Part shown: one piece after another, positions 16,418-61,268 of the stretch
Numbering within the stretch: position 1 is the first letter of the stretch
Layout: the number at the start of each line of letters is the position of its first letter
IMG/VR virus record: IMGVR_UViG_3300044825_001015
Span: 32,001-96,000 of that record
Direction: 5' to 3' (one strand)
Length of the DNA: 64,000 nt
Source of the DNA: a virus
Notes under the pieces: generated by a model
What the model was told of the DNA's origin: nothing
The model's input: only the letters and a program-made list of their open reading frames with translations
Database searches by the model: none
Program-made: the position numbers and the translations under genes

Positions 16418-17336
16418 CGGAAGGTATATATTAAGCATTGACAATCAGATAATTTCTGAGTCATATAATGCTATTACAGATGAAGGACTTAATTTAATTA
16501 GATCATATCTAGCAAACCCTACATCTAATTGGGCAGGCGCTATCAGCGTGGGTGCTATGAATAGCACACAGTCAGCATCAACTAATACCTCCATGGACTT
16601 TGAATTAGCAAGGGTTCCAGTATTACTTAGATCTGTAGAAAATAATGAAATTGTAATAAAGGGGGTGCTAGACTCAGATTTTTCTGGAAAGATATTTGAA
16701 TTAGGCTTATACCCAGAAGTATTTAATATAGTTTCAAGCGGCTTTGATGATAAATTAATTTTAAATTTTGATGAACTATGGTTAAATACTTCAGATAATT
16801 TACAAATCAATTCTTCTAATTTTAGTTTAGATAGCAGGGCAGGAGAAAATAATCTAAAGATAGGAACCGCAGCGTTAGATATATACACTAACATAGGATT
16901 AAATATATCTGGCTACACGAACTTTGATGTAACATCTTTAATGTATAACGTTACTGCTACTGGAACAAATAGATCATTTAGAGTAACGTTTATAGACAAT
17001 CAGTTACCTACTCCTGGAACTAAATATGCAGACTTCATGCTAAACTGCGCCTCCGTTGGCTATAAAAAGATAAATAAGTTGATCGGTGATTTTGTAGAAA
17101 CTGGAAACTTTAATTCAGAAATCATAAAAATTAACATAACAGCATCTTCATATGCAAATACTGCTAGAGTTGAACTGGATGCATTTAGAATAAATGACGC
17201 AGATGAAACTAATCCAGATTTCGCGTTAGTTAGTAGATCATTAATAGGTACACAAAATGGATCTTCAGCATCAGATTATGTATACAAGCCAGGTGGTGTT
17301 GAAGTAGATATTGAATATAGGGTGCAGTTACTCTAA
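16410..17336 (+). CDS. Minor tail/baseplate protein
   Basis: 'N.IT..G...I..YLA', 'FELARVP' and 'ELGLYP' motifs typical of tail proteins. Confidence 0.6.
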   Translation: MSSGRYILSIDNQIISESYNAITDEGLNLIRSYLANPTSNWAGAISVGAMNSTQSASTNTSMDFELARVPVLLRSVENNEIVIKGVLDSDFSGKIFELGLYPEVFNIVSSGFDDKLILNFDELWLNTSDNLQINSSNFSLDSRAGENNLKIGTAALDIYTNIGLNISGYTNFDVTSLMYNVTATGTNRSFRVTFIDNQLPTPGTKYADFMLNCASVGYKKINKLIGDFVETGNFNSEIIKINITASSYANTARVELDAFRINDADETNPDFALVSRSLIGTQNGSSASDYVYKPGGVEVDIEYRVQLL

Positions 17337-20306: not shown

Positions 20307-22841
20307 ATGACAGTAAAAGCATTTAGATCAGCCTGGACATTAGTTAAAAATATAAAATCATTTAGATCTGGCATTGGATGGACAGATATTAAAAACATAC
20401 GCGCATGGCGCGACCCCAATGGGGATAATATTGGATTCTGGGATCTAGTTTATCCAGATTTACCAATATCTTCTGTAACTCCATTCGTATCTGGTACTGG
20501 GGAACCAGGAACTACATTTTCTCTATCCAATAATCAGCCATGGGTTAATGATGGGTATGTTAGAGTTCAAAATACTACTTACCAATGGGCTAGGTCAACA
20601 ACATCTGGAGGCCCATATACCAATGTTTCTGGTGCTACTTCATCAACATACAATATTCAATCATCAGACTTAAATAATTATTTTATATGTAGAATTACAG
20701 GAACTAATGCAAAAGGCTCTACAACAGTTAATTCTTCACAAAGTTTACTAGTTAGTGATCCAAATTACACCTTTAACTTTTTACAGGAATTTGGAGTCAA
20801 TGCTAACGCAATGATTATATTTGACAAAACAAATAATGTCTTCCCAGACACCGATATATTAATTATATCAGGAAGAGTACTCGCTTATTTCTTTGGGGAC
20901 TACAAGCATTTTGATTTATGGTATAGATCAGATGCGACTACATTTAGACTTTATCATAGGATGTATAGAAATGATAGAACAACTAGGCCATCAACACCAG
21001 ATATAGAATATGAAATAGTATTTACTAATGGTAGTAGAGTAGTAGATATATTTGTAATTAATCCAATAGCAACACAATACATATTAGATGATGTAGCATA
21101 CCTAAAAGATTTTTTCCAGCAATTTAAAAGTTATAATATAGCGAATTACGCAGCGGGAAGAAGATTTAGGGTTACTATGGATAGCACTACTGGAATATTT
21201 CAGGATTTCGCCTCGCCGTCAACAACAAGTCCTTCATTTACTGATGGATGGATATATATTTCTTCTGGTAATGATAGTACTACTGGTACTATTACTTTTA
21301 GTTCATTACAAAATTTTCCATCCCCGTTGTCACCAGCACAGACGTTTGTTGGTCCCTACTTTTCATTTAATAAGTCAAATATGTTTTTCCCAAGATCGGT
21401 TACTATTAATAATGTATCCTATTCTAGTACGACTCAAGCAAGCGTATCTTGGTCGTATGGCACTTCAAGTCCATTAAACGGAACTTCATATACTATAGAA
21501 GTTTTGAATTCATCACAAACATCTGTTTTATCTACTCAGAATACTACTTTAACTTCAGCAACAGTATCTGGACTTACAGTTGGAACATCATATGTAATTA
21601 GAGTTACCCCTAATTCAAGATCAGATTTTTTTGGTCAATATGGATTTCCTACTGTGTCAAATTATTTACATGCTACTGTTCCTGGTGCCCCAACTGGAGT
21701 AACGGGTACTTCTGGAAATACTCAGGTAGCATTAAGTTGGACAGCGCCAACCTCTAATGGTGGATCTAACATTACTGGATATAAAATAAGATATTCTACA
21801 AATGGTGGTGTTAGTTGGCTTCCAGCAACACCAATTTCTACTGGAAGCACAACAACTTCATTTACTGTAACTGGACTAACTAATGGGACTTCATATATAT
21901 TTCAGGTACTTGCTACCAATGCAATTGGAGATGGGGCATGGTCTTCATCCAGTTCATCAGTCACTCCGCAAGCAGTTGCTAGTAGAATTGGAGTAACGGT
22001 TTCCCCTGCTAGTGTACAAACTTTAAGTCAGACTGCTACATTTACTGCACAATTACAGGATAATGCAACTCCGCCTAATAATGTTTCTATAAGTGGTAGA
22101 AGTATAACTTTTACATTAAATCCAGCCGCTGGAGGAAGTATTAATACAACATCTGGGACAACAGATGCTAATGGCAGGGCGCAAGTTACATTTACTTCTG
22201 GATCACTAGGAGGAACTGCAACTGTTACTGCCACATCTACTGGATTAACTCAAGGTTCAGCAGATTTAACAGTAACCCTTAGAGATGCATTAAATCCAAC
22301 AATAACTGGAACTAGCACTACTAAAGGGGTCTCATTTTCAAATACGAATCGTGACGCTGCATGGACATATTCTAATTGGATTGGACCTACAGTTGGAACG
22401 CTAGAATCTGGGGACTCGTATAATAATGCACAGTTCGATATATTAGTTCCAAGAGTAAAAAATCAAAATCCAAGTCTGACTGTAAATAGAACTGTCGGAA
22501 GTGGAGGAAACGCAGAAACAACAGATACTACATTTAATGCTAATAGAAGCGTATCTATACAACTAATTTCATCAAGATCTGGGTATGCTTCTGGATTTAG
22601 TAATAGCGCTACCGCTACTGCTGGAGTTAGCATAGATGCTACTAGATCATATCAATGGCAACAATTTACTAATGGAACATGGAACACAAGTTTTGGAACA
22701 GCATTTTCAGGAATGCAAACCTTCAGATTGTCGTGGAGTAATAGAACCTTTACTTCTAGACAAATTAGATGTAGGGTAACTACTACATTTAGTGATGGCA
22801 CTTCTGATATATCATTCAGCAATGAGCCAACTATTCCATAA
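20307..22841 (+). CDS. Ser/Thr-rich adhesin-like virion protein with Ig, FN3 and Big_1 domains
   Basis: 'VPGAPTGV..VALSWTAPTSNGGSNITGY' (FN3), 'TTDANGRAQVTFTS' (Big_1) and 'TYQW' Ig motifs. Confidence 0.75.
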   Translation: MTVKAFRSAWTLVKNIKSFRSGIGWTDIKNIRAWRDPNGDNIGFWDLVYPDLPISSVTPFVSGTGEPGTTFSLSNNQPWVNDGYVRVQNTTYQWARSTTSGGPYTNVSGATSSTYNIQSSDLNNYFICRITGTNAKGSTTVNSSQSLLVSDPNYTFNFLQEFGVNANAMIIFDKTNNVFPDTDILIISGRVLAYFFGDYKHFDLWYRSDATTFRLYHRMYRNDRTTRPSTPDIEYEIVFTNGSRVVDIFVINPIATQYILDDVAYLKDFFQQFKSYNIANYAAGRRFRVTMDSTTGIFQDFASPSTTSPSFTDGWIYISSGNDSTTGTITFSSLQNFPSPLSPAQTFVGPYFSFNKSNMFFPRSVTINNVSYSSTTQASVSWSYGTSSPLNGTSYTIEVLNSSQTSVLSTQNTTLTSATVSGLTVGTSYVIRVTPNSRSDFFGQYGFPTVSNYLHATVPGAPTGVTGTSGNTQVALSWTAPTSNGGSNITGYKIRYSTNGGVSWLPATPISTGSTTTSFTVTGLTNGTSYIFQVLATNAIGDGAWSSSSSSVTPQAVASRIGVTVSPASVQTLSQTATFTAQLQDNATPPNNVSISGRSITFTLNPAAGGSINTTSGTTDANGRAQVTFTSGSLGGTATVTATSTGLTQGSADLTVTLRDALNPTITGTSTTKGVSFSNTNRDAAWTYSNWIGPTVGTLESGDSYNNAQFDILVPRVKNQNPSLTVNRTVGSGGNAETTDTTFNANRSVSIQLISSRSGYASGFSNSATATAGVSIDATRSYQWQQFTNGTWNTSFGTAFSGMQTFRLSWSNRTFTSRQIRCRVTTTFSDGTSDISFSNEPTIP

Positions 22842-40701: not shown

Positions 40702-41203
40702 GTTAACTAGTTCGTTTGATCAAATGAACTTAGTTGTAGAAGAATTACTAAAAGGTAAAAATCCAACAGACATTGCTAAGTTCCTTGGAATTAAAAGATC
40801 TCAGGTTCTAGAACATATTGATACCTGGCGTGAATTAGTATCTGGAGATAGCAGAATCAGAGAAAGGGCCAAGGAAGCCTTGGCTGGTGCAGACCAGCAT
40901 TATTCAATGATTATTCAGCGTGCATGGGAAACAGTAGATCAAGCAGATGCAAATCAGCAGTATAATACTAAAGCCTCCGCATTGAAGATGATTGCAGATG
41001 TTGAGCAAAAGAGAATTGACATGCTTCAAAAGGCTGGCCTTTTAGAAAATAATGAAATGTCTGCCCAACTTTTAGAAACTGAGCGTAAGCAAGAAATTCT
41101 TATGAATATTTTAAAGGAAGTAACATCTGACTGTAATCATTGTAAAGTAGAAGTTGCTAGAAGATTATCAGAAGTTACTGGCAAGGTAGAGCCAATTGAT
41201 TGA
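40688..41203 (+). CDS. HTH protein, probable terminase small subunit
   Basis: N-terminal HTH and coiled coil, directly upstream of TerL. Confidence 0.6.
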   Translation: MSEIELTSSFDQMNLVVEELLKGKNPTDIAKFLGIKRSQVLEHIDTWRELVSGDSRIRERAKEALAGADQHYSMIIQRAWETVDQADANQQYNTKASALKMIADVEQKRIDMLQKAGLLENNEMSAQLLETERKQEILMNILKEVTSDCNHCKVEVARRLSEVTGKVEPID

Positions 41204-42986
41204 TTTTAGTGACTTTATAGATGCACTTGACGGTGACCAATTTGAAGAGGTCCCAGCAGATATAGAGGAATTTGTCACTAATAATGACTACTTAGATTTA
41301 CCCCCTCTTTCTGAATATCAATATCAATCTATTAGGGCAATGACCCAAATTTATAAAAAGGATACTCTAGTAAAATGGCTAGGCGAGGAAGAGGGAATTA
41401 AGAGATGGAATCAGACATGCAAGGAAGTTATTCTTCAGATAGGGAAGGGCGGGGGGAAGGACTTTATCTCTACTATCGGGTGTGCCTATGTTGTCCACCT
41501 ATTGTTGTGCCTAAAGGACCCTGCTAAGTATTATGGAAAGCCGCCAGGAGATTCAATTGACATTATTAACATTGCTATCAACGCTGTTCAAGCAAATAGG
41601 GTATTCTTTAAAGGATTCAAGCGCATCATTGAAAAGTCGGCTTGGTTCCAGGGAAGGTACATCCCAAAGGCTAACAGTATTGAATTTGATAAAGAAATAA
41701 CAGTACACTCAGGACATTCAGAGGCAGAGTCCTGGGAGGGGTACAATGTTATGTTGGCTATCCTTGACGAAATCTCAGGCTTTGAATTAGAAAATACTAC
41801 AGGTCGTCAGAGTCCAAAAACTTCTGCTGCAATATATAAAATGTATAGAGCGTCTGTTAACTCTCGCTTCCCAGATTTTGGTAAGGTCATTATGCTCTCC
41901 TTCCCCAGATTTAAGAATGACTTTATCCAGCAAAAATATAATGATGCTGTGGCAGAAAAAGAGACTATAATAAAATCACACAGTTTTAAAATAGATCCAG
42001 ACCTTCCTGATGGTCACGATGGAAATGAATTCACCATTGAGTGGGAGGAGGATCATATAGTATCCTACGCCCTACCCTACATCTTTGCGCTTAAAAGGCC
42101 CACATGGGAATTTAATCCGACTAGGAAAATACAAGACTTTACAATTGCATTCTATGACGATCCATTAGACTCTCTAATGAGATTTGCCTGTATGCCTCCA
42201 GAGGCCACAGACGCATTCTTTAAGTCACGCGAAAAAATTGAAAAAGCATTTAGTAATCCTAAATTTGCTGTAGATTTTAGCGGAAGATTTGCAGAATGGT
42301 TTAAGCCAGAAGAAGGCCGTCAGTATTTCTTACACGTTGACTTAGCCCAAAAGCATGACAATTGTGCTGTTGCAATGGCACACATTGAGGGATGGGTACA
42401 GATGAAGATCGCTGGCACGATGACAGAGGCGGCTCCTAGAGTTGTAGTAGACGCCGTAAGATATTGGCAACCAACATCTACCACTAGCGTAGATTTATCA
42501 GAAGTAAAAGATTACATTATTGAATTGCGTGAGCGCGGGTTTAATTTGGGAGTGGTCACGTTTGACCGCTGGAATTCTCATGATATGATGCAACAATTGA
42601 AGCATTATGGAATTAATACAGAGTTATTGTCTGTCGCAAAAAAGCACTATGAGGACATGGCCCTTTTAGTAACTGAAGAAAGAGTATACGGGCCAGAGAT
42701 AAAACTTCTTATTGATGAATTATTACAGTTGAGAATTATCCGTGATAAGGTAGACCACCCAAGAAAGGGAAGTAAGGACTTAGCAGACGCAGTTTGTGGC
42801 TCCATATATAATGCTATATCAAGATCCAGAAGAGACAATATGCAGGAAATAGAAATTTATTCCTACGATATGATTGCACAAGATAGCGAGGAAGAGATAA
42901 AATTAAGGATGGGACGACAAAGAAATAAAGATTTAATCATCCCTCCTGCTCTACAAAATGCTATTGACAGCATGGAAATAATTTAA
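41196..42986 (+). CDS. Terminase large subunit
   Basis: GKGGGKD Walker A, ILDE Walker B, HVDLA nuclease motif and 'DHP..GSKDLADAV'. Confidence 0.92.
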   Translation: MIDFSDFIDALDGDQFEEVPADIEEFVTNNDYLDLPPLSEYQYQSIRAMTQIYKKDTLVKWLGEEEGIKRWNQTCKEVILQIGKGGGKDFISTIGCAYVVHLLLCLKDPAKYYGKPPGDSIDIINIAINAVQANRVFFKGFKRIIEKSAWFQGRYIPKANSIEFDKEITVHSGHSEAESWEGYNVMLAILDEISGFELENTTGRQSPKTSAAIYKMYRASVNSRFPDFGKVIMLSFPRFKNDFIQQKYNDAVAEKETIIKSHSFKIDPDLPDGHDGNEFTIEWEEDHIVSYALPYIFALKRPTWEFNPTRKIQDFTIAFYDDPLDSLMRFACMPPEATDAFFKSREKIEKAFSNPKFAVDFSGRFAEWFKPEEGRQYFLHVDLAQKHDNCAVAMAHIEGWVQMKIAGTMTEAAPRVVVDAVRYWQPTSTTSVDLSEVKDYIIELRERGFNLGVVTFDRWNSHDMMQQLKHYGINTELLSVAKKHYEDMALLVTEERVYGPEIKLLIDELLQLRIIRDKVDHPRKGSKDLADAVCGSIYNAISRSRRDNMQEIEIYSYDMIAQDSEEEIKLRMGRQRNKDLIIPPALQNAIDSMEII

Positions 42987-43002
42987 TATAGTAATACTAT
43001 AC

Positions 43003-43076
43003 GGGGCGGTGGCGCAGTCGGTGAGCGCAGTACTCTTATAAGGTAAAGGTCGTGGGTTCAAGTCCCACCCGCCCTA
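43003..43076 (+). tRNA. tRNA-Ile (anticodon UAU)
   Basis: Cloverleaf with acceptor GGGGCGG/CCGCCCT, anticodon loop CTTATAA and T-loop TTCAAGT. Confidence 0.85.
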
Positions 43077-43077
43077 C

Positions 43078-43208
43078 GGTTACAGATGGCAATATCTTAG
43101 GATGGTGTAGTTACATACAAATATCCCGTTATAGCGAGTCTGCCGTTGAGTGCGTTGAATTCGTTTCTAGCGTCTTTCGTGCAAAAGGATTCGTAGCCAT
43201 CTGTAATC
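43078..43208 (+). ncRNA. Candidate structured ncRNA filling the tRNA-Ile/tRNA-Pro spacer
   Basis: 13-bp terminal helix GGTTACAGATGGC/GCCATCTGTAATC plus internal hairpins; no credible ORF. Confidence 0.6.
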
Positions 43209-43211
43209 CTA

Positions 43212-43285
43212 CGGGATGTGGCGCAGTTTGGTAGCGCACCTGTTTTGGGAACAGGGGGCCGAAGGTTCAAATCCTTTCATCCCGA
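43212..43285 (+). tRNA. tRNA-Pro (UGG)
   Basis: Acceptor CGGGATG/CATCCCG, loop TTTGGGA. Confidence 0.92.
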
Positions 43286-43286
43286 C

Positions 43287-43574
43287 ATGGAAATTTTATT
43301 TGTAATTACAGCAGGCACCTTGCTTGCAGAAGGATTTGCTTTTGTGCTTTTAATGAAGCATATAAAGCAAATTCGTTCTGAGTTTAATATGTATCAGAAG
43401 AACCAAAACGATGCAGATATAATTTCCGAAACTATAGATATGTACCAGGAAAAAATTATAGAACTTGAAGAAAAAAATAATAAGTTATCAATAGAAAATA
43501 AACTTCTTCAAGAAAAACTATCTAAAATAAATAAGCAAATGAAGCAGATCAGCGATCATTTTAAAACAAACTGA
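43287..43574 (+). CDS. Membrane-anchored coiled-coil protein
   Basis: N-terminal TM helix MEILFVITAG..; starts 1 nt after tRNA-Pro. Confidence 0.6.
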   Translation: MEILFVITAGTLLAEGFAFVLLMKHIKQIRSEFNMYQKNQNDADIISETIDMYQEKIIELEEKNNKLSIENKLLQEKLSKINKQMKQISDHFKTN

Positions 43575-43586
43575 TATAATTAATGT

Positions 43587-43823
43587 ATGGGAGACTCAAT
43601 GGAAACTGAAGTTCAGGGAAAGGAAAGAGTTCTTACCAGAAGCGACAGGTGCGATGCTCCAAAGTGTCCAGCCCAAGCGTGGGTTATTGCTAAGTTTGTA
43701 ACTGGAGAATTGTATTTCTGTGGGCACCACTTTGACAAGTATGAAGTCAGTATCATTCGTGATGCATATGACATTGTAGATGAAAGAGAATTTATCAATG
43801 CTAAATCAGAATCTTCTGCTTAG
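43587..43823 (+). CDS. Conserved actinobacterial-type Zn-binding small protein
   Basis: 'DRCD..C.AQA...L.FCGHH' motif; leaderless geometry from TGATATAAT at 43572. Confidence 0.65.
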   Translation: MGDSMETEVQGKERVLTRSDRCDAPKCPAQAWVIAKFVTGELYFCGHHFDKYEVSIIRDAYDIVDEREFINAKSESSA

Positions 43824-44307
43824 TAAGAAAGATAAAATAAAACTTGTTAGAGAGCGTGACGGATTTACATGCGCTATCTGCCTAAAAGATTTTAAAGCAA
43901 ATTCTGATGTAACGTTAGATCATTGGATTCCCAAATCAGCGGGTGGATCTGAGGATATATCTAATCTAAGACTTGCACATAAAAAATGTAATGCATGGAA
44001 AAGCGATAGGATACCTAATGAAGATGGAACAATTCCTCCACGCCCTCCAAGATCTAATTTTCAGGATAGAAAGCGGAGAAAGCAGGAGATACTAGAAAAC
44101 CTTTGCACAGATTGTTATGACGGAAGGCTTTTGCTGCAGGGGGAGACATGCCCATATTGTGGATCTCCAGCGGGTCCAGAAGACTGGCCCCATTGGGCAA
44201 GGCGTCCAGCAAACAAGTGTGATCATACTCCGCCAGAATGGTGTTGGGCATGTTCTATAGGAATAGTTGACCGAAAGCCAGTATTTTTGGTACTATTAGA
44301 GGGATAG
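43798..44307 (+). CDS. HNH endonuclease with C-terminal Cys-rich domain
   Basis: RDGFTCAIC, DHWIPKS.GG and NL...H..CN motifs. Confidence 0.85.
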   Translation: MLNQNLLLSKKDKIKLVRERDGFTCAICLKDFKANSDVTLDHWIPKSAGGSEDISNLRLAHKKCNAWKSDRIPNEDGTIPPRPPRSNFQDRKRRKQEILENLCTDCYDGRLLLQGETCPYCGSPAGPEDWPHWARRPANKCDHTPPEWCWACSIGIVDRKPVFLVLLEG

Positions 44308-44311
44308 GTAA

Positions 44312-44382
44312 TCCCCATTGGTGTAATGGCAGCACAAATGACTTTGGATCATTTAGTCGTAGTTCGAATCTATGATGGGGAG
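44312..44382 (+). tRNA. tRNA-Gln (UUG)
   Basis: Acceptor TCCCCAT/ATGGGGA, loop CTTTGGA. Confidence 0.92.
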
Positions 44383-44394
44383 CGGGAGGTAAAA

Positions 44395-44643
44395 ATGCCT
44401 TGGAAGATAGTAAGAAACTTTGGTGATTGCAATGGATATGCAGTAGTCAAAGAGGGGACTAGTGAGATTGAAGGTTGTCATTCTACTAGGTCCGCAGCAG
44501 AAGCACAGCAACGTGCGCTATATGCATCTGAAAATAAGTCAATTCATAATGATGATGAAGAGGATGATGAGCGCAGAGGTAAGCGCAGAAATGAATCCCA
44601 CAAATTCTGGGATGGCGCATTTATTGAAAAGGGTTATAATTGA
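44395..44643 (+). CDS. Small phage protein with C-terminal KFWDGAF tag
   Basis: SD GGAGGT; 'MPW...C.GYAVVK...GCH...A..Q.ALYA.E'. Confidence 0.7.
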   Translation: MPWKIVRNFGDCNGYAVVKEGTSEIEGCHSTRSAAEAQQRALYASENKSIHNDDEEDDERRGKRRNESHKFWDGAFIEKGYN

Positions 44644-44780
44644 CACGCGATAAAGTAATTGAGAAACTTAAGAATAAGAGAATGGAGAATAACGCTATCT
44701 CTAGCGAAATCTCCTCATACATTGCAGGATGGAATGGTGCAATCGACTATGCCATTCAGCAACTAAAGAAGAAAGATTAA
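44640..44780 (+). CDS. Hypothetical protein (46 aa, not in ORF track)
   Basis: TTG start overlapping the upstream stop; MTRDKVIEKL... Confidence 0.5.
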   Translation: MTRDKVIEKLKNKRMENNAISSEISSYIAGWNGAIDYAIQQLKKKD

Positions 44781-44782
44781 TT

Positions 44783-45196
44783 ATGAAGAAGATTATTATT
44801 GCTACTGCAATTTCTGCTGTAGCGCTAGTTGGATGTACTTCACAGTCAGCACAACCAGCACCTACTGTAACTATTACAAAGGCTGCACCAGCACCATCAC
44901 TAGATGATCCAGAGGTAATCCCACAACCAGCCATGGGTAATGAGGAACTGTACCTTATTGGTCTTAAGTCGATGGATAATCCGCTTATCAATATTGCTAC
45001 AGACGAGCAACTTCTTGATATGGGCTACTCCGTATGCGAGGCTCTTGAATCTGGGTTCACAGTAGAGGATATTATTCAGTATATGGCTACAGAGATGGCA
45101 AGAGAGGGTCTTACTTCTGATTACCAGTCAGAGGCAGTAGGATATATTATTGGGGCTGCAGATACCGCTCTGTGCCCAGGATCTAGTACATTCTAG
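44783..45196 (+). CDS. Lipoprotein (DUF732-like)
   Basis: Signal MKKIIIATAISAVALVG-C lipobox; 'GYSVCEAL' and C-terminal 'ALCP'. Confidence 0.75.
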   Translation: MKKIIIATAISAVALVGCTSQSAQPAPTVTITKAAPAPSLDDPEVIPQPAMGNEELYLIGLKSMDNPLINIATDEQLLDMGYSVCEALESGFTVEDIIQYMATEMAREGLTSDYQSEAVGYIIGAADTALCPGSSTF

Positions 45197-45204
45197 ATCC
45201 AAAC

Positions 45205-45275
45205 GCGGCTGTGGTGTAGAGGTAACACATCTGCCTTCCAAGCAGTTATCGCCAGTTCGATTCTGGTCAGCCGCT
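45205..45275 (+). tRNA. tRNA-Gly (UCC)
   Basis: Acceptor GCGGCTG/CAGCCGC, loop CTTCCAA. Confidence 0.92.
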
Positions 45276-45277
45276 CT

Positions 45278-45949
45278 ATGAGTGATTTAAAGTATTCTGT
45301 TGTTGAATATGATACATACTTAACATATGCTATATGGACGCCAGAAAGAGAAGATTCTGATTTTATAATAGGATATGGAACAGAAGTATCAGTAATTTAT
45401 CCAATAGTAGAATATATTTATCCTAACGATTATCCAAATAATTCTGGGTGGAATAGATTATTAAAATCCAAAATTTTTAAAAACCAAAGAGGAGAGTATT
45501 CTGGTCAAGGATGTGATGAATCAGGAACAATGCCATTATTTAATTTACATTATTCTTTACCAGTAATATTTAGAGCGTTTTCACACAAAGACTACAAGGC
45601 GCTATTTACAATTCTCATGGCACTAGCATTAGTAGATAGTAAAAATAGATTTGGGACAGAGGGAGTGTCGTCTTTTGAACTATCACCAGAGATGCTTAAT
45701 TTCTTAGAAAGAACTGATAAATTCTGGGGTAGCAGAAGCGCAGAAATACACATGAAGGCCGAACTTCTTGAAGAATATGATTCTGACAATTGGGAAGTAA
45801 AACTTCCTAAAAACAAAATATTAGACATTGAAAAAAATGTAGTATTGCAATCTAAGGCAGAATTCAAGCGCAGAATATTTTACAAAAAATATAGCAATAG
45901 AGTAAACTTAAGTAATTGTGAGCAGTTAGAAATAGACTGGCCCCAGTAA
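45278..45949 (+). CDS. Hypothetical protein bracketed by tRNA-Gly and tRNA-Arg
   Basis: Starts 2 nt after tRNA-Gly; stop codon lies inside tRNA-Arg. Confidence 0.65.
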   Translation: MSDLKYSVVEYDTYLTYAIWTPEREDSDFIIGYGTEVSVIYPIVEYIYPNDYPNNSGWNRLLKSKIFKNQRGEYSGQGCDESGTMPLFNLHYSLPVIFRAFSHKDYKALFTILMALALVDSKNRFGTEGVSSFELSPEMLNFLERTDKFWGSRSAEIHMKAELLEEYDSDNWEVKLPKNKILDIEKNVVLQSKAEFKRRIFYKKYSNRVNLSNCEQLEIDWPQ

Positions 45950-46012
45950 CTCAGAGGATAGAGTGTCGGACTTCTAATCCGTTGGTCGCAGGTTCGAATC
46001 CTGCCTGGGGCG
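45940..46012 (+). tRNA. tRNA-Arg (UCU)
   Basis: Acceptor GCCCCAG/CTGGGGC, loop CTTCTAA. Confidence 0.92.
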
Positions 46013-46013
46013 C

Positions 46014-46526
46014 GTGGAAAAAATATATCATAAATTTCATATATCTGACTATCTTAATATAAAAAGTGATTTGATAGAAAAGATACACCTCTCTGAGTCA
46101 AAAAAGGACTTTGAGAATATATCAAGGACAGACTGGGATATTAAAAACGATGACCTTGATAGAGACTGGGCTAAGTGCTTTTTAGATAATTTTTATAAAA
46201 AAATAAAGTACACATATAACCAAATTGGATTTAAAAAAATAGAAATACAAAATATCTGGTTCCAAGAGTACGATTACCAGTCGAGTTTTGAGTGGCATAA
46301 CCATCCAGGAGCAGACTTTGCAAGCGTATTCTTTTTGAATTTTTCAAAAAATAATCCTGGAACAGAATTCATGGTAAATGATAAAATATTAAGAGCAGAA
46401 GTAGAGGAAGGAGATATAATTATATTTCCAGCAACTATAATGCATAGATCTCCACCAAATTTATCTGATGATAAAAGAATTATTATAGCCTTTAATGTAA
46501 AAGTAAATGAAAAAAATATGTCATAA
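46014..46526 (+). CDS. 2OG-Fe(II) oxygenase-like protein (TIGR02466-like)
   Basis: 'WHNHP', 'EEGD..IFP...H' and 'R..IAFN' motifs. Confidence 0.75.
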   Translation: MEKIYHKFHISDYLNIKSDLIEKIHLSESKKDFENISRTDWDIKNDDLDRDWAKCFLDNFYKKIKYTYNQIGFKKIEIQNIWFQEYDYQSSFEWHNHPGADFASVFFLNFSKNNPGTEFMVNDKILRAEVEEGDIIIFPATIMHRSPPNLSDDKRIIIAFNVKVNEKNMS

Positions 46527-46623
46527 TTGTAAAAATGAAAAGGATCTAATAGAATTCCTTTTAAAGTCAGGGCAACGAGTTGGCGCTAGAGGAATTTGTT
46601 TAGATTGCTTCAATGCCAGATAG
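46507..46623 (+). CDS. Small CxxC-CxxC protein (38 aa, not in ORF track)
   Basis: MKKICHNC...ICLDCFNAR; stop codon lies inside tRNA-Tyr. Confidence 0.5.
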   Translation: MKKICHNCKNEKDLIEFLLKSGQRVGARGICLDCFNAR

Positions 46624-46694
46624 TCCCCAAGGTGGGGAAGCGGTCTGTAAAACCGTCGCCATCGGCATGGTTGGTTCGATTCCAACATCTGGCA
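46615..46694 (+). tRNA. tRNA-Tyr (GUA), atypical D-arm
   Basis: Acceptor GCCAGAT/ATCTGGC, loop CTGTAAA, long variable arm. Confidence 0.8.
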
Positions 46695-46698
46695 CTTG

Positions 46699-46770
46699 TG
46701 GCGTGTGGCGCAATGGCAGCGCAATCGGCTGTTAACCGATGGGTTGTAGGTTCGAATCCTACCACGCCAG
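46699..46770 (+). tRNA. tRNA-Asn (GUU)
   Basis: Acceptor TGGCGTG/CACGCCA, loop CTGTTAA. Confidence 0.92.
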
Positions 46771-46771
46771 C

Positions 46772-47758
46772 GTGAAGAGTATATTTGTTTCTGTAGTTTC
46801 TTTTAATGAACCTTTTTTAAAAGAGACTATTTTAAGTGCAATAAAAAAATCTAGTAAGCCAGAAAGAATATACTTTGGTGTTGTAGAACAACGTACTGAC
46901 TCAAACTTTGCAGACCTAAAAGAAATAAAAAATGTAAAGCATATTTCTATGCAAGTAGGAGGCCCACTTGGAGTAGGCATTCCAAGAAAACTAAGCATGG
47001 AACTTCTAGATAATCAAGATTACTGTCTAATCATAGATTCTCATATGATTTTTAATGACAACTGGGACGAAAATATAATCAGAAGAATAAAGCACATAAG
47101 TAAAATTTATTCTGAAAAAGTTATTATATCTCAGCATTTACCAGTATTAGATGTAGATGATAATAATTTAGTTTTATATCCAGAAAAGAAAAAAGACACA
47201 CCATGTTATTTAAAATTTGATGGAATATTTATTGATGACATTCCAATACCAAATGGTCATGAATTTTATCAGCAGTACGCACTCACATGCCACTATTTGT
47301 TTTCACTTTCAAAATCCTTCAAGGAAGTAGTGTTTGATCCACGAATATTTTATTTCGCAGAAGAGTCATCCTTAGCGATGAGATTTATAACTAGAGGATA
47401 TAAAATATTTTCTACGAGATATTTCCCTATGTTTCATCTACAAAAAACAAATGGTAAAAAAATTAAAAGTTGGCAGACATTAAATGGAACATCAAGGCTT
47501 CAAGACGATATTGAAATAGTTTATAGTATATTTTCGGGCAAGGAAATAGGTGTATGGGGGGCACCGTCAAAATGTAGGTTAGATGATTTTTTGGCGGAAT
47601 CTAGGCTAGACATATCATATTATATGTCTGGGGTAGACCATGATTTAGATATAAATAAGCAAATAAGAAGTAAGATAGTAGACATGTTTGATAATGGTAA
47701 TGATTTTTATGAAAACCTATATCAAAATTTTATTCCAGCAATAAGGAGTCCTAAATGA
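46772..47758 (+). CDS. GlcNAc-transferase-like glycosyltransferase (GT60-like)
   Basis: 'IFVSV.S..EP.L..T', 'IYFGV.EQ', IDSHM.F..NWD, 'F.AEE' motifs; GTG start 1 nt after tRNA-Asn. Confidence 0.75.
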   Translation: MKSIFVSVVSFNEPFLKETILSAIKKSSKPERIYFGVVEQRTDSNFADLKEIKNVKHISMQVGGPLGVGIPRKLSMELLDNQDYCLIIDSHMIFNDNWDENIIRRIKHISKIYSEKVIISQHLPVLDVDDNNLVLYPEKKKDTPCYLKFDGIFIDDIPIPNGHEFYQQYALTCHYLFSLSKSFKEVVFDPRIFYFAEESSLAMRFITRGYKIFSTRYFPMFHLQKTNGKKIKSWQTLNGTSRLQDDIEIVYSIFSGKEIGVWGAPSKCRLDDFLAESRLDISYYMSGVDHDLDINKQIRSKIVDMFDNGNDFYENLYQNFIPAIRSPK

Positions 47759-49434
47759 AGGTTTTAGGGTTGTCTCCGTTTCATGATGCTGGCGCAGTCC
47801 TAGTAGAAGACGGGTTTGTAAAAAAATATTTTAAAGAAGAAAGACTTAATAGAATAAAAAGAAGTTCCTGTCCAGAATTATCTATAGAGAAATGTTTAGA
47901 GGGCGTAGAAGAAGTTGAATTATTTTCATACTCTGCAGCGACACACAGATTATCATTCGCAAAAAGAGATGAAGATTTATCTTATAAGTTTCTACATTGG
48001 CAAGATGCCGTTAAAAAGCATTCAAAATTAATAGATTCAATAGATTTATCTAGAATGCATCATCTCCAGCACGCATCCACTTCATTTTATAATAGCGGGT
48101 TTAGTGATGCTGCTGTCATAGTTGTCGATGGTAGAGGCTCTAACTTTGGAACTATAGTAGAAACAGAAACAATATTTTATGCAGAGTATCCAGATATTTT
48201 TACTCCTGTATATAAAGCATATGAAAAAACATTTAGATTTAATAAAGAAGATGTAGATCGGGAAAGAAAAAGGCTTCCAGATTGTGAAATAAAAGTATCT
48301 TCTAATTTAGGAATAACTCACCTATACTGCACGGCAACACATTTGATTAATGAATCATTCTTAGAAAATGGAAAGACTATGGGCCTTTCCGCGTATGGAG
48401 ATGCTAGCATTAATTACGAGCCGCTACTCTTGGAGGGAGAAGCCCTAGTAGATCCAGGCAAATTTATTATTTTTGAAACTCCAGAATTAGCAGAATCACC
48501 GCTTGAAGTTATTTATCATAAAGACTATGTAGGTAAACAAAATATTGTAACTAAAGAAAACTATCATATTTATGCTAATTATGCTTTACATGTTCAAAAA
48601 GAAACAGAACGTGCATTAGAAATATTAGTAAATAAGGCAATAGAAAAAACTGGTAGTAAAAACATATGTTTGGCAGGAGGCTATGGACTTAATATAGTTA
48701 ATAATTTAAAGTTGCTTCAAAAGTTTCCTGGGGTAAAGTTTTATTTCGATCCAATGTCTGATGACGGAGGTACTTCAATCGGTGGAGCAATGATTGCTTA
48801 TAGATCTGTAACTAAGGATCGTGAACCGAAACCTATTAAAAATAATTTTATACATGGGATAGATCATGATATAAGTAATATAAAGGGTACCAGCGTTTCA
48901 GAAAAAGATATTGCTAAAATAATTTATTCTGGAAATATAGTAGCAATGTATTACGGTCTAGCGGAGGCTGGACCAAGGGCACTAGGAAATAGATCCATCT
49001 TGTTTGATCCTAGAATAAAAAATGGAAAAGATATAATTAATGTAGTAAAAAAAAGAGAGTGGTATAGGCCATTTGCTGCCTCTATGCTAGAGGAAGATGC
49101 CACTAGGTACTTTGACTACATTGATAATATTGGTTATGAATACATGCTAGTTAATGCAATAGCAAAGCCAGATACTAAAGACATAATCCCCTCCGTTATT
49201 CATGAAGATGGATCATGTAGAATACATATAGTAAAAGATACTAGCCACCCACTATTTAAATTACTTACAAGTTTTAAAGAAATAACTGGCATCGGAGTTC
49301 TTCTTAATACAAGTTTCAACCTTGCTGGAGAGCCACTTATTGAAACTCCACAGGAAGCAATCGGCACCTGGAAGATTTCAGATATAGATTGTTTATGGTT
49401 TCCAAAGATACAAACTGCTCTAATAAAAACATGA
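47755..49434 (+). CDS. Carbamoyltransferase (NodU/CmcH family)
   Basis: HD, EER..R.K, HH..HA, DG.G, GK.MGL..YG, GPRALGNRS, RPFA and LNTSFN motifs. Confidence 0.92.
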   Translation: MKVLGLSPFHDAGAVLVEDGFVKKYFKEERLNRIKRSSCPELSIEKCLEGVEEVELFSYSAATHRLSFAKRDEDLSYKFLHWQDAVKKHSKLIDSIDLSRMHHLQHASTSFYNSGFSDAAVIVVDGRGSNFGTIVETETIFYAEYPDIFTPVYKAYEKTFRFNKEDVDRERKRLPDCEIKVSSNLGITHLYCTATHLINESFLENGKTMGLSAYGDASINYEPLLLEGEALVDPGKFIIFETPELAESPLEVIYHKDYVGKQNIVTKENYHIYANYALHVQKETERALEILVNKAIEKTGSKNICLAGGYGLNIVNNLKLLQKFPGVKFYFDPMSDDGGTSIGGAMIAYRSVTKDREPKPIKNNFIHGIDHDISNIKGTSVSEKDIAKIIYSGNIVAMYYGLAEAGPRALGNRSILFDPRIKNGKDIINVVKKREWYRPFAASMLEEDATRYFDYIDNIGYEYMLVNAIAKPDTKDIIPSVIHEDGSCRIHIVKDTSHPLFKLLTSFKEITGIGVLLNTSFNLAGEPLIETPQEAIGTWKISDIDCLWFPKIQTALIKT

Positions 49435-49453
49435 TTGCTGGTATAATTGTAAT

Positions 49454-49819
49454 ATGGAACTCTATGATGAATTAACAGAAGAAGAAAAAGCATATCATGA
49501 TGCAATGGTTTCTATTGCAGAAAGATTTGGCCCGTTTGACCAGGGAACATCAAGTATTTGGGTTGGATATGAAGGCCCAGAAGACAATGAAGATGCTCAA
49601 ATTGGTGTTAAGTGTGCTAATTGCTCCCTGCATATTGAGAGAGAAGACGGTCAATTAGGATGTGCTATCCTTTCTTATCTAGTTCATCCAGAAGCAAAGT
49701 GCCGCTTGGCAGCAATTCCAGATGGCTATGTAAATGCATCAATGGATGATGAAGATGATGATCCAAATGACGACGATGATATGATGGGCAAATTCTGGGG
49801 CGGATCTTTTCTTAAATGA
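49454..49819 (+). CDS. Acidic 4-Cys (HiPIP-like) protein with C-terminal KFWGGSF tag
   Basis: CANC...C...C; leaderless geometry from TGGTATAAT at 49439. Confidence 0.6.
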   Translation: MELYDELTEEEKAYHDAMVSIAERFGPFDQGTSSIWVGYEGPEDNEDAQIGVKCANCSLHIEREDGQLGCAILSYLVHPEAKCRLAAIPDGYVNASMDDEDDDPNDDDDMMGKFWGGSFLK

Positions 49820-49941
49820 ATAATGTAATTACCACGGAGACAATCCGTGGCGGAGGTGGCGGAATAAAGAATCCAGACCACTCAGATGGTAAAATAAAAA
49901 TAGGTAAATCTCCGCTTAAAGTTCGTCGCGGGAAGAAGTAG
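49816..49941 (+). CDS. Small basic protein (41 aa, not in ORF track)
   Basis: ATGA overlap; MNNVITTETIRGGGGG...RRGKK. Confidence 0.45.
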   Translation: MNNVITTETIRGGGGGIKNPDHSDGKIKIGKSPLKVRRGKK

Positions 49942-50045
49942 TGTTCACTTTTTATTGCTTAGTTAAACACAATGGTAACTACTACCTCAGACCTTACATT
50001 ACTTTGTATAATAATATGATTGAAATTGTAAATTATCCAAAATCG

Positions 50046-50074
50046 TTGACCATATCGTAATATTCCGGTATAAT
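50046..50074 (+). promoter_or_regulatory. Near-consensus sigma70/SigA promoter
   Basis: TTGACC-N17-TATAAT. Confidence 0.8.
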
Positions 50075-50106
50075 AGAATTCATGTTGCCGCCACAAGGAG
50101 GTCAAT

Positions 50107-50721
50107 ATGACGACAATAAACCGATTTGGTGCTGCATTAGTATCAACAGTAACAGTATTATCAATGCTACTAATCTCTCCAAACCTGGCGTATGCTAAGT
50201 CTACGCCTTTGGCGGAAGGTACGGGTAACTTTGCCACCGCTGATACATTAGAAAGAAGGGCAATAACAGATAGAAACTGGACTTTGCCATCTAACTGTAA
50301 TGATAAGCAGGCAAAGATACTATTTAAGGCGGGTTTTAATAGACCTGGAATGCTAAGAGGAGCCTGGGCAATTACCTGGCGTGAATCTAAGCACCAGAAT
50401 CTTTCCGAAAGCAGTCCTTGGTATTCAGGTGCGTTGGGTACTTGGCAAATTCAAACAAGTGCCTGGTCAGGAAAATCCTGGTGGTCTAGGGATAATATGC
50501 TAGACAAAGATAAGCAATCAGAAATTGTAAGAAAGCATTTCCTTAATGATGGTATGCATAATTGGGGATATGACTATTCATTTAAAAATGACTCATGGCA
50601 TGAAGATGCAGGAATGTATTATTCACTATGGGGTTCTGGACTAACGTATTCATGGGTAATCGCACCATTCAATACTGGATGGTCGTTGTTCCCAAAGAAA
50701 TGTACACCTGAAAAGATTTAA
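50107..50721 (+). CDS. Secreted lytic transglycosylase / lysozyme-like protein
   Basis: Signal peptide (AYA/K); catalytic 'AITWRES' and 'GALGTWQI'; SD AAGGAGGT. Confidence 0.75.
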   Translation: MTTINRFGAALVSTVTVLSMLLISPNLAYAKSTPLAEGTGNFATADTLERRAITDRNWTLPSNCNDKQAKILFKAGFNRPGMLRGAWAITWRESKHQNLSESSPWYSGALGTWQIQTSAWSGKSWWSRDNMLDKDKQSEIVRKHFLNDGMHNWGYDYSFKNDSWHEDAGMYYSLWGSGLTYSWVIAPFNTGWSLFPKKCTPEKI

Positions 50722-50774
50722 ATGATAGAATTATATTCTAGGCGCAAATAAAATTGCGGCAACAGCCTAGGATC

Positions 50775-50847
50775 GCCACAGTAACTCAGTTGGTAGAGTA
50801 CCCGCCTTGTAAGCGGAAAGTCATCGGTTCGAATCCGATCTGTGGCT
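50775..50847 (+). tRNA. tRNA-Thr (UGU)
   Basis: Acceptor GCCACAG/CTGTGGC, loop CTTGTAA. Confidence 0.92.
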
Positions 50848-50848
50848 C

Positions 50849-51166
50849 ATGGACTATAGTAATGAAGAAATAGAACACTTCATGAACTATTTAGAAGATG
50901 AAGGCGTTCTTGAATGGGTAGGTATGAGTGACGATGGAGAAAGAACGTTCGTCTTTAATTTTGAAAAGATGTACTTTGTTTTCCCAGAACTATATCATGC
51001 GATGATGGAAGAATTAAATAAAGAGTTGTTAAATCTTTACGACCTAGGGTTAGTTACTATAGAATACGATACAAATCTGCAGGCAAAATTTAGAATAACA
51101 GATGCTGGTAAAAAATATTTAGAAGAAAATGGTGTTCCAATACCAGAAGATTGGGAAGACGAGTGA
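50849..51166 (+). CDS. Hypothetical acidic protein (winged-helix-like C-terminus)
   Basis: 'L.DLGLV......ITDAGK.YL'; ATG 1 nt after tRNA-Thr. Confidence 0.6.
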   Translation: MDYSNEEIEHFMNYLEDEGVLEWVGMSDDGERTFVFNFEKMYFVFPELYHAMMEELNKELLNLYDLGLVTIEYDTNLQAKFRITDAGKKYLEENGVPIPEDWEDE

Positions 51167-51867
51167 GAAAAGTACTAACAAAGGAATACATCGAAAACCT
51201 TGGCTATGAGGTAGAAGAAATAAGTTATAGAATCTTTTTAGTAAAAAATTTTCTTACTGATGCAGAATCAAATAAATTAGTTAAAATAGGTAGACAGTCT
51301 AGTGATGAAGAATGGTCCTTTCATTACATGAATGGTGTCAGAGAGATGGCGCTATCAAAGTTCGGTAGAACAGATTTAGATAACTTAGTTGCAGAAGGAC
51401 TATACGAAATAACTCATAATTGGATAGATAAGACCCTTCCAATTAAAGATGATAATTTAAGAATAAGCCTAGACAAGAGATGCCAAAGATTGTTTGACTT
51501 TGTAGATGATCTGCAATTCAAAGGATGCGGAACTATTCAGAGACAATATGATGGTGTTCCACTAAAAGATCATGTTGACAATCATACAGATCCATCACTA
51601 GAATATGCAGTAGTTTTTTATCTGAATGACGACTATACTAATGGTGAAGTGTTTTTTGTAAATCAAGAAATACAGATGCGTCCTCCAAAAAATTCTCTTT
51701 TAATATTTCCAACATCAGAAGAATGGAGACATGGGGTAAATGCCCCAGGGCCAGGGCCACATAGATATGTGATCCCAGGATTTGTTGAGGTAAGAGATTT
51801 CTGGAAAAAGCATGAAGAGAATGGGTATAATTTAGAGGTAACGTTGAGCGAACTTAAAGGAGATTAA
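51163..51867 (+). CDS. Prolyl-4-hydroxylase-like 2OG-Fe(II) oxygenase
   Basis: HVD, YLNDDY..GE..F and HGV..R motifs. Confidence 0.85.
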   Translation: MRKVLTKEYIENLGYEVEEISYRIFLVKNFLTDAESNKLVKIGRQSSDEEWSFHYMNGVREMALSKFGRTDLDNLVAEGLYEITHNWIDKTLPIKDDNLRISLDKRCQRLFDFVDDLQFKGCGTIQRQYDGVPLKDHVDNHTDPSLEYAVVFYLNDDYTNGEVFFVNQEIQMRPPKNSLLIFPTSEEWRHGVNAPGPGPHRYVIPGFVEVRDFWKKHEENGYNLEVTLSELKGD

Positions 51868-60801: not shown

Positions 60802-61268
60802 AGTGGGCATCTTTCCTTGTAGGACTATGGATTATATCCTATACTATAACTACGATCATCTTGAGGATGAACAAGAAGCAATATAATATAACACACTACT
60901 ATCCACAGAATGCGATAAATATATGAGCGACTTAGATAAGATGCTTCAGGAAATGGAAAGGCTTCTCAAGAGGTACAGAAGGCTTCTGAATATCTCTACG
61001 CCTATCCTTGTGGGTATCTTTGTGTCGCTATTTTTTGCAGCATACATGGTCTATATCATAGGGATAAATTAATGAATCAGAATCCACATGGGGCAGTTGG
61101 AAGTGACTGTCTTACTACACTATTGGCGGGGGGATGCTTTATGATTCTCCTCTTTACTACTATAGTAATTATACTAGGATGGCTCTTTACATGAGTACAA
61201 AAGAAACACTAATGATAGCAATCTATTCTTTGGCTATTGTCTATTTGACAGCACGAATTGGCTATTTT

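Follow-up and report, generated by a model that had tools for sequence, protein, structure and literature searches.

The transcripts of animal mitochondria are reportedly punctuated by tRNAs, as Ojala, Montoya and Attardi are said to have described in 1981, and Hoelzle et al. are said to have reported in 2012 tRNA-like elements of Haloferax, i.e. degenerate tRNA-like signals whose processing defines mRNA ends. Mitochondrial tRNA punctuation has been reviewed (PMC4394434), and the t-elements of plant mitochondria are tRNA-shaped structures that set mRNA ends as well (PMC1920247). Here, an array of tRNA genes and small protein genes is described from an uncultured freshwater phage, IMG/VR record IMGVR_UViG_3300044825_001015 (104,844 bp, complete, with direct terminal repeats), of which bases 32001–96000 were analysed (64,000 nucleotides, referred to as the window; positions below are those of the window unless otherwise stated). 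Within this array, open reading frames (ORFs) start directly at the 3′ ends of tRNA genes, and from sequence comparison and by analogy with published processing maps it is likely that tRNA processing makes leaderless messages of them.

Like the mitochondrial system, the phage array would form a polycistronic transcript with tRNAs between the ORFs, and its starts lie at or near tRNA 3′ ends with neither a leader nor a Shine–Dalgarno (SD) sequence. It differs in that it belongs to a bacterial virus and would depend on host enzymes, that the cut would fall after position 74 of the tRNA (C74) and not after the discriminator base (N73), and that only some genes are punctuated, with promoters and SD-led genes mixed in. 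Moreover, the array has complete stop codons that do not arise through polyadenylation, and some ORFs run 9–10 nt into the next tRNA. In comparison with the plant t-elements, which are degenerate signals, the phage uses full tRNA genes.

Leaderless translation and tRNA 3′ processing have both been mapped in actinobacteria. For Mycobacterium smegmatis, leaders of at most 5 nt are counted as leaderless, and about a quarter of mycobacterial transcripts fall into this class (PMC6448022); in Propionibacterium (Cutibacterium) acnes, leaderless mRNAs with AUG and GUG are common (PMC3848588). The genes described here resemble these in that AUG or GUG would stand at the 5′ end, or at most 5 nt from it, with no SD. 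A classical leaderless mRNA bears the 5′ triphosphate of a primary transcript, whereas the phage message would be made by cleavage and carry a 5′ monophosphate. In P. acnes and Streptomyces coelicolor, whose tRNA genes mostly have C74 but no CCA, precursors are cut “between the Cs” (PMC3848588; PMC4681348, Table S4), and the mapped downstream 5′-monophosphate end is N75, the very base where the phage start codons begin. Both papers deal with host tRNAs only and draw no link from the downstream fragment to translation. The phage layout would bring together two traits already documented for actinobacteria, cleavage after C74 and the efficient translation of leaderless mRNAs.

The closest cultured phages belong to cluster BE (Paradiddles, Gilson; PMC5764925). 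They share with the window genome the terminal repeats, WhiB, tRNAs with C74 only, coding sequences (CDSs) that abut tRNAs, and a large terminase (TerL) gene with a long stretch of tRNAs and small genes behind it. The window genome is smaller (105 kb vs about 130 kb), has a lower GC content (about 38%) and fewer tRNAs (11 vs 30–48), and unlike the cluster BE phages it has no transfer-messenger RNA (tmRNA) and no Ro gene, and is of freshwater origin and uncultured. The genome announcement for cluster BE (PMC5764925) makes no mention of the abutment of tRNAs and genes, and full-text literature searches on tRNA punctuation and leaderless mRNAs made from tRNAs, in part aimed at phages, and on cluster BE phages returned no description of leaderless mRNAs made by tRNA processing in phages.

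Start codons at tRNA 3′ ends

tRNA genes were called with ARAGORN, with the Rfam tRNA model as a second model that ends one base earlier, at N73. ARAGORN extends a gene only via a matching prefix of CCA, so its extra base is C74. Eight tRNA genes were found in the window, all on the plus strand (Table 1), with Rfam scores of 42–71 bits (at least 60 in seven of the eight). When read from the sequence, C74 is present in all eight and CCA is encoded in none, bases 74–76 being, in array order, CGG, CAT, CGG, CTA, CGT, CTT, CGT and CAT. The complete genome has 11 tRNA genes, 11 of which carry C74.

Behind tRNA-Pro, tRNA-Arg, tRNA-Asn and tRNA-Thr, a start codon stands on the base after C74 (termed flush below), and behind tRNA-Gly the ATG lies a single T beyond it. 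Flush or near-flush starts devoid of leader signals thus follow five of the seven tRNAs whose next feature is not another tRNA. Of all plus-strand positions, only 0.75% carry a start codon whose ORF has 95 aa or more, and the chance that five or more of seven junctions have such a start in a 2-nt window is 1.5 × 10−8.

No SD-like sequence precedes the five starts (duplex energies −0.9 to −4.3 kcal/mol), because the bases upstream are the acceptor and T arms of the tRNA; most other genes of the phage have a recognisable SD 6–12 nt upstream. A −10 element of the form TANNNT was likewise absent 6–8 nt upstream of all five starts when the sequence was read. With no −10 box at the right distance, the flush 5′ ends cannot be transcription starts, and promoters inside the tRNA genes that would yield primary leaderless transcripts were rejected for this reason.

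The ORFs opened by these codons behave as genes. The ratio of nonsynonymous to synonymous substitution rates (dN/dS) is 0.02–0.2, with dS saturated, in the families behind tRNA-Thr, tRNA-Gly and tRNA-Arg (0.02–0.18 for the 105-aa family behind tRNA-Thr). The oxygenase behind tRNA-Arg matches PHROG_81 over residues 5–168, so that no later in-frame start would keep the domain; close relatives of it were absent from IMG/VR, and its start was checked against the PHROG profile only. In the glycosyltransferase behind tRNA-Asn, the typical first β-strand begins three residues past the GTG, and the N-terminus aligns with that of a homologue at the related locus L008. The transmembrane helix of the protein behind tRNA-Pro starts at residues 2–4, later in-frame starts not being conserved. 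In the tRNA-Thr and tRNA-Gly families, conserved residues begin at positions 1–7 and later in-frame ATGs are again not conserved. On these alignments and matches, the five flush genes are taken to be real and the flush codons to be their true starts.

An earlier note on this DNA, made from the letters and ORF translations, had described eight tRNA genes with C74 and no CCA, five protein starts right at tRNA 3′ ends with no room for an SD, and tRNA-Gln as the only one with a normal SD-led gene behind it. ARAGORN, Rfam and the sequence itself bear out these descriptions, the starts lying 0–1 nt after C74 and the gene behind tRNA-Gln having a clear SD (Table 1). The possibility raised there that SD-led codons further downstream are the true starts is very unlikely, as alignments and the domain match uphold the flush codons.

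Table 1 Features of the tRNA/gene array and its upstream border (window positions)
Feature	Position	Strand	Remarks
Large terminase (TerL)	41196–42986		56–62% identical to TerL of cluster BE phages
Promoter-like site	42964–42992	+	TTGACA-17-TATAGT, 11/12 matches to consensus; ends 10 nt before tRNA-Ile
tRNA-Ile(UAU)	43003–43077	+	discriminator A43076, C74 43077, no CCA
134-nt structured RNA	43078–43211	+	from base after C74 of tRNA-Ile to 5′ end of tRNA-Pro; 13-bp closing helix
tRNA-Pro(UGG)	43212–43286	+	C74 43286, no CCA
F01, 95-aa membrane and coiled-coil protein	43287–43574	+	ATG is base after C74 of tRNA-Pro
Extended −10, TGaTATAAT	43572–43586	+	6 nt before ATG 43587; putative promoter-type leaderless start
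DUF7455 protein	43587–43823	+	alternative SD-led start at 43599
HNH endonuclease	43780–44307	+	ends 4 nt before tRNA-Gln; overlaps DUF7455 3′ end by 44 nt
tRNA-Gln(UUG)	44312–44383	+	C74 44383
82-aa protein	44395–44643	+	SD-led, GGGAGG-N5-ATG; SD-led control inside the array
DUF732 protein	44783–45196	+	ends 8 nt before tRNA-Gly
tRNA-Gly(UCC)	45205–45276	+	discriminator T45275, C74 45276
F05, 223-aa protein, function unassigned	45278–45949	+	ATG 1 nt past C74 of tRNA-Gly; stop TAA 45947–45949 inside tRNA-Arg
tRNA-Arg(UCU)	45940–46013	+	C74 46013
F06, 170-aa 2OG-Fe(II) oxygenase	46014–46526	+	GTG is base after C74 of tRNA-Arg; Pfam and PHROG_81 match
38-aa CxxC...CxxC mini-ORF (zinc-ribbon-like)	46507–46623	+	overlaps oxygenase end; stop TAG 46621–46623 inside tRNA-Tyr
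tRNA-Tyr(GUA)	46615–46695	+	C74 46695
tRNA-Asn(GUU)	46699–46771	+	C74 46771; 3 nt after tRNA-Tyr
F08, 328-aa glycosyltransferase (Pfam GlcNAc)	46772–47758	+	GTG is base after C74 of tRNA-Asn
559-aa carbamoyltransferase	47755–49434	+	SD-led; overlaps glycosyltransferase stop (ATGA)
Extended −10, TGgTATAAT	49439–49453	+	6 nt before ATG 49454; putative promoter-type leaderless start
F10, 121-aa protein	49454–49819	+	leaderless by promoter geometry
F11, 204-aa protein	50107–50721	+	SD-led
tRNA-Thr(UGU)	50775–50848	+	C74 50848
F12, 105-aa protein	50849–51166	+	ATG is base after C74 of tRNA-Thr

Register and slot turnover among relatives

Relatives were collected from IMG/VR with the terminase as query, and 80 loci were taken out of at least 592. 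For each tRNA, we located the first start codon whose ORF has 40 aa or more, determined its distance from the discriminator and counted unique junctions. In the window genome and the 80 related loci together, C74 is present in 252 of 252 tRNA genes and CCA in just 37. In 19 unique junctions the first start immediately follows C74, and the three positions beyond account for 4, 2 and 2; many gene families are involved, though the junctions are not independent of phylogeny. Up to +10 the positions are nearly empty, and from about +11 to +13 a broad set of SD-led starts sets in. The tabulation of tRNA-to-start distances that the earlier note had suggested as a check thus gives a pile-up on one base and not a random spread.

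Encoding C74 without CCA is not universal. Among non-actinobacterial control phages that share a distant TerL, CCA is encoded in 19 of 20 tRNA genes of Rhizobium phage Y65, in 3/3 of Thermus phage YS40 and in 2/2 each of a Vibrio phage and an E. coli phage; Listeria phage LIS04, Bacillus phage HSE3 and Maribacter phage Molly, also with a distant TerL, have no tRNAs. These controls offer no CCA-less set lacking C74 for comparison.

The register holds within families and across them. The family behind tRNA-Pro is always found behind this tRNA and in the same register, its proteins being 33–57% identical. In a profile search of IMG/VR with the 105-aa family, 11 of 11 loci read tRNA-Thr, C, ATG, and codons 2–5 vary. 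The slot behind tRNA-Arg is occupied flush by three unrelated families, namely the 170-aa oxygenase in the window, a 243–254-aa protein (F16) in L008 and L014, and a 173-aa protein in a distant clade; it is empty in L004, and in L005, L010 and L011 it holds the 38-aa CxxC mini-ORF. In L005 (6180–6296) and L010 (9167–9283), the mini-ORF takes up exactly the 109 nt that separate tRNA-Arg from tRNA-Tyr, its ATG lying 1 nt past C74 and its stop inside tRNA-Tyr. The oxygenase at this slot is specific to the window genome, where the mini-ORF is displaced downstream. An extra oxygenase paralogue lies behind tRNA-Gln in L004 and L005, where it is inserted exactly behind C74 and in front of the SD that leads the gene found next to tRNA-Gln in other relatives, and the glycosyltransferase behind tRNA-Asn was met in the window genome only. 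The suggestion of the earlier note that tRNA 3′ ends serve as slots agrees with the flush register shared by unrelated families behind tRNA-Arg.

It might be argued that this pattern is a by-product of recombination, the conserved tRNAs being crossover points for cassette swaps, so that the borders reflect DNA exchange and not expression. Cassettes between near-identical tRNAs do differ among phages whose TerL proteins are 91–97% identical. In some relatives, tRNA-Tyr and tRNA-Asn have also traded places (Asn-Tyr in L004 and L014, TerL 92–93% identical, vs 46615–46771 of the window), which points to active rearrangement inside the array. Exchange of this kind explains variable content; it explains neither the missing spacer and SD nor a register maintained through saturated synonymous divergence, and it leaves unaccounted for that a gene was inserted directly behind C74 with the following SD kept. 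As a full explanation recombination is therefore considered unlikely. It is compatible with release of leaderless messages by tRNA processing and probably adds to it.

Promoter-type leaderless starts

The phage appears from its sequence to employ a second, conventional kind of leaderless start at about a dozen sites. Boxes of the form (TGN)TANNNT before start codons show a sharply preferred spacing, with 12 of 25 at 6 nt vs 1–5 at neighbouring spacings, which is the classical geometry of leaderless promoters in actinobacteria. In the window, ATGs that are the first of their ORF and have a box at 6 nt are located at 20307, 43587, 49454 and 59608, and the same geometry recurs outside the window at genome positions 2580 and 24393. 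Among the relatives, 11 tRNA-to-gene junctions show a box, 6 nt and a start. The F16 family, flush behind tRNA-Arg in L008 and L014, stands in L004 behind tRNA-Tyr and is preceded by TGaTATACT-N6-ATG, with the N-termini of both arrangements aligning at residue 1; one gene would thus be reached by two leaderless routes. That actinobacteria translate leaderless mRNAs, as the earlier note had stated, agrees with the published data (PMC6448022; PMC3848588).

Position of the 3′ cut and proposed mechanism

The position of the cut is taken here from published work on other actinobacteria. In Streptomyces coelicolor, 53 of 65 tRNA genes lack CCA, and most of the downstream 5′-monophosphate ends listed in Table S4 of that study lie after C74, both in genes with CCA (C↓CA, the arrow marking the cut) and in most of the listed CCA-less genes, with patterns such as CGAc↓tc, GCAC↓gc, GAGc↓tc and C↓CGgg (PMC4681348). 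The processed 5′ ends of P. acnes lie inside CCA, “always between the Cs”, and this organism has no obvious RNase Z (PMC3848588). If the phage precursors are cut likewise after C74, four of the five messages would lack a leader altogether instead of carrying the 1–2 nt that the earlier note had derived from an RNase Z cut after N73, a part of its proposal that these maps do not support. C74 would be invariant because it is retained on the tRNA, only C75 and A76 having to be added.

Under the mechanism that we consider likely, a promoter upstream of tRNA-Ile, together with a few internal promoters, would transcribe the array, from which the tRNAs must be excised. The promoter-like site upstream of tRNA-Ile (Table 1) likely drives the array. 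All tRNAs and genes of the array are on the plus strand with two internal promoter-type starts, and no terminator-like site or hairpin was found on the plus strand within 42800–51400; co-transcription of tRNAs and ORFs is plausible from this layout. The 3′ cut would separate C74 from N75, with C75 and A76 then supplied by the CCA-adding enzyme. AUG or GUG would thus begin at N75 behind tRNA-Pro, tRNA-Arg, tRNA-Asn and tRNA-Thr, and behind tRNA-Gly N75 would be the single base in front of the AUG. With each cut, a 5′-monophosphorylated mRNA with no leader, or a leader of 1 nt, would be set free, on which actinobacterial ribosomes would start without an SD. A tRNA 3′ end would in this way be a ready-made expression site that needs neither promoter nor SD, which would explain why unrelated genes (oxygenases, the glycosyltransferase/carbamoyltransferase pair, small proteins) share the register in relatives. 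Release of leaderless messages by tRNA excision and the use of tRNA 3′ ends as slots, both put forward in the earlier note, are in this form backed by the comparison and the published maps.

In Bacillus subtilis, RNase Z cuts CCA-less precursors after N73. Were the phage precursors cut at this position, the messages would keep C74 within a leader of 1–2 nt, and the conservation of C74 would need a different explanation. An RNase Z homologue is present in S. coelicolor, a few sites of this species in Table S4 show a second cut before C74 (CTA↓c↓t, CGA↓c↓a↓g; PMC4681348), and leaders of up to 5 nt are still classed as leaderless in mycobacteria (PMC6448022). Most of the listed S. coelicolor sites, however, lie after C74, and P. 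acnes makes the same cut with no obvious RNase Z. A discarded C74 would leave no reason for its presence in every tRNA gene of the relatives, and the starts pile up on the base after C74 and do not spread over neighbouring positions. A cut after N73 is therefore quite unlikely.

Gene ends and uncut precursors

Most ORFs of the array stop 4–10 nt before a tRNA 5′ end, and all stop codons are complete, with none left for completion after cleavage. The mitochondrial analogy drawn in the earlier note thus applies to the 5′ side of the genes with their flush starts and fails at the 3′ side, where the stops are complete and two lie inside the next tRNA. These two, which end the 223-aa ORF (45947–45949) and the mini-ORF (46621–46623), occupy positions 8–10 of the tRNA as TAA or TAG, 9–10 nt inside it. 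About eight more tRNA-internal stops were found in relatives (L008, L014, L069, L081 and others), some of them on short and possibly spurious ORFs. The near-universal U8-A9-R10 is used for this purpose.

A reading in which compaction alone has shaped the array, with the spacers squeezed out and the ORFs translated from uncut or partly cut precursors, either SD-independently or by coupling, would render tRNA cutting irrelevant or even harmful. The array is tight on both sides of the tRNAs, the tRNA-internal stops of some ORFs require an uncut 3′ side, and many phage genes lack a strong SD. Against this stands the folded tRNA, which 1–2 nt before the start would be expected from known ribosome geometry to block the upstream mRNA path on the 30S subunit, and we know of no coupling across a 75-nt structured tRNA. 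Compaction moreover predicts a spread of short spacers and not a spike at one base followed by a nearly empty zone to about +10, and functional tRNAs need to be excised, so that the downstream leaderless fragment arises anyway. This reading is very unlikely. That the starts are miscalled, the true ones being SD-led codons downstream or the ORFs not being genes, is hardly credible even though the calls were made from sequence alone, given the low dN/dS, domain matches or conserved residues that begin at most 5 residues from the proposed start, later in-frame ATGs that are neither conserved nor preceded by an SD, and a first ATG or GTG that is invariant in front of variable codons 2–5.

Several points weigh against the release of leaderless messages by tRNA processing. 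RNase J and RNase E can be expected to act on ends bearing a 5′ monophosphate, and translation of 5′-monophosphate leaderless RNAs in actinobacteria was not found in the literature examined. For the cut position, Streptomyces and Cutibacterium serve as models, and the phage's host may differ from these. About a third or more of the phage genes have a weak SD or none, and some SD-independent internal initiation thus exists in the phage's system. The register is not absolute either, as the family behind tRNA-Gly starts 0, 1, 2 or 3 nt past C74, depending on the relative. Where a stop lies inside a tRNA, cleavage by RNase P removes it, which brings translation and full processing into conflict; such ORFs must be translated before the RNase P cut, or stop-less products must be tolerated. 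Finally, convincing abutting genes are absent from the mycobacteriophages Bxz1 and Myrna, whose short ORFs in GC-rich DNA are unreliable. C74 is present in 26/26 tRNAs of Bxz1 and in 30/31 of Myrna, so that C74 without flush genes in these phages makes the trait lineage-specific.

Rescue of stop-less messages by a tmRNA of the phage itself was ruled out, as this genome has no tmRNA gene.

Cultured phages and wider implications

Flush starts are also present in curated genomes. In Paradiddles (NC_042010), C74 is present in 41 of 42 tRNAs and CCA in none, and six flush starts were found, of which three are annotated CDSs that begin immediately behind tRNA-Glu, tRNA-Leu and tRNA-Gln, a fourth has its annotated start 9 nt later and two are unannotated. 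The two unannotated ORFs of Paradiddles (L083) are one of 74 aa behind tRNA-Leu(caa) at 16486–16710 and one of 50 aa behind tRNA-Lys(ttt) at 2777–2929; the CDS with the late annotated start, 9 nt past an in-frame flush ATG, is the one behind tRNA-Phe, at 5797. Gilson (NC_048742) has C74 in 30 of 31 tRNAs and annotated flush CDSs behind tRNA-Phe, tRNA-Arg and tRNA-Glu. In the Rhodococcus phage NiceHouse, C74 is encoded in 31 of 32 tRNAs, with one flush start.

A broader claim would be that, in a wide lineage of actinophages, the boundary between C74 and N75 is a general and evolvable expression site free of promoter and SD. ORFs placed on N75 would give an exactly leaderless 5′-monophosphate mRNA in step with tRNA maturation, the register would be selected through saturated divergence, and accessory genes would be captured there. 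Stops in U8-A9-R10 would reflect competition between translation and RNase P, and tRNA punctuation, so far described only for organelles, would have a viral counterpart. In our judgement the arguments for and against this general form are about evenly balanced.

If tRNA processing does make these messages, the tRNA genes of large actinophages would do two jobs, supplying tRNAs and defining the 5′ ends of translatable messages. This would account for the small genes interleaved with the tRNAs, for the invariant C74 and for the expression of newly gained accessory genes that bring no signals of their own. It would also provide an annotation rule for start codons beside tRNAs, several ORFs of curated Streptomyces phages being unannotated or started late; gene and start calls next to tRNAs in curated actinophage genomes may need review. 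Furthermore, tRNA punctuation would extend from organelles to bacterial viruses, and a simple way of expressing several genes in actinobacteria with no SD would be at hand. The idea is directly testable in the cultured relatives that grow on Streptomyces.

Phage lineage and host

Over 94–100% of its length, the TerL protein shows 56–62% identity to those of Streptomyces phages from cluster BE (Stanwilliamsviridae: Paradiddles, Gilson, Wakanda and others); its identity to NiceHouse TerL is 36%. The gene order, TerL and then the tRNA array, is common to the window genome and the cluster BE phages. The genome has a GC content of about 38%, and nearly all large ORFs up to about position 61,000 of the window are on the plus strand. 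It encodes two WhiB proteins, a family that among 14 control genomes was present in Corynebacterium only, and the array contains a gene for a DUF732 protein, an actinobacterial family, and one for a DUF7455 protein.

The two WhiB genes, the DUF732 and DUF7455 genes and the kinship of TerL with Streptomyces phages indicate that the host is an actinobacterium, and probably a low-GC freshwater one. The nearest cultured phages by TerL infect Streptomyces, and the −10-N6-ATG starts of the phage itself agree with an actinobacterial host. We propose from these sequence features that it is an actinobacterial phage of the lytic type with an array of co-transcribed tRNAs and genes.

One relative contig originates from Lake Mendota. 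A search of genome contigs with WhiB, made to find the host, gave only this contig, the 7-kb L088 (JBIKTI010000524.1); it is binned in a Lake Mendota ‘Phycisphaerales’ metagenome-assembled genome, encodes a WhiB protein 71% identical to the phage's WhiB and is probably phage DNA that was mis-binned.

Other features of the array

Behind tRNA-Ile, the base after C74 begins not an ORF but a structured RNA of 134 nt (Table 1), which was predicted to fold with −46.6 kcal/mol (z = −5.2). The candidate RNA in the same register that had been proposed in the earlier note is in line with this start and stable fold. Homologues of 114–138 nt lie between two tRNAs in many relatives, behind tRNA-Ile, tRNA-Gln, tRNA-Leu, tRNA-Met or tRNA-Asp. 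The closing helix (12–13 bp) is kept there via many compensatory changes, and a CTTAGGATGG-like motif is conserved. A comparison with Rfam gave no match. An assignment as a Y RNA acting with Ro was rejected, as the genome has no TROVE (Ro) gene.

The anticodons of the array tRNAs suit an AT-rich phage. HNH genes, one of which lies upstream of tRNA-Gln in the window, are also present within the tRNA arrays of cultured relatives.

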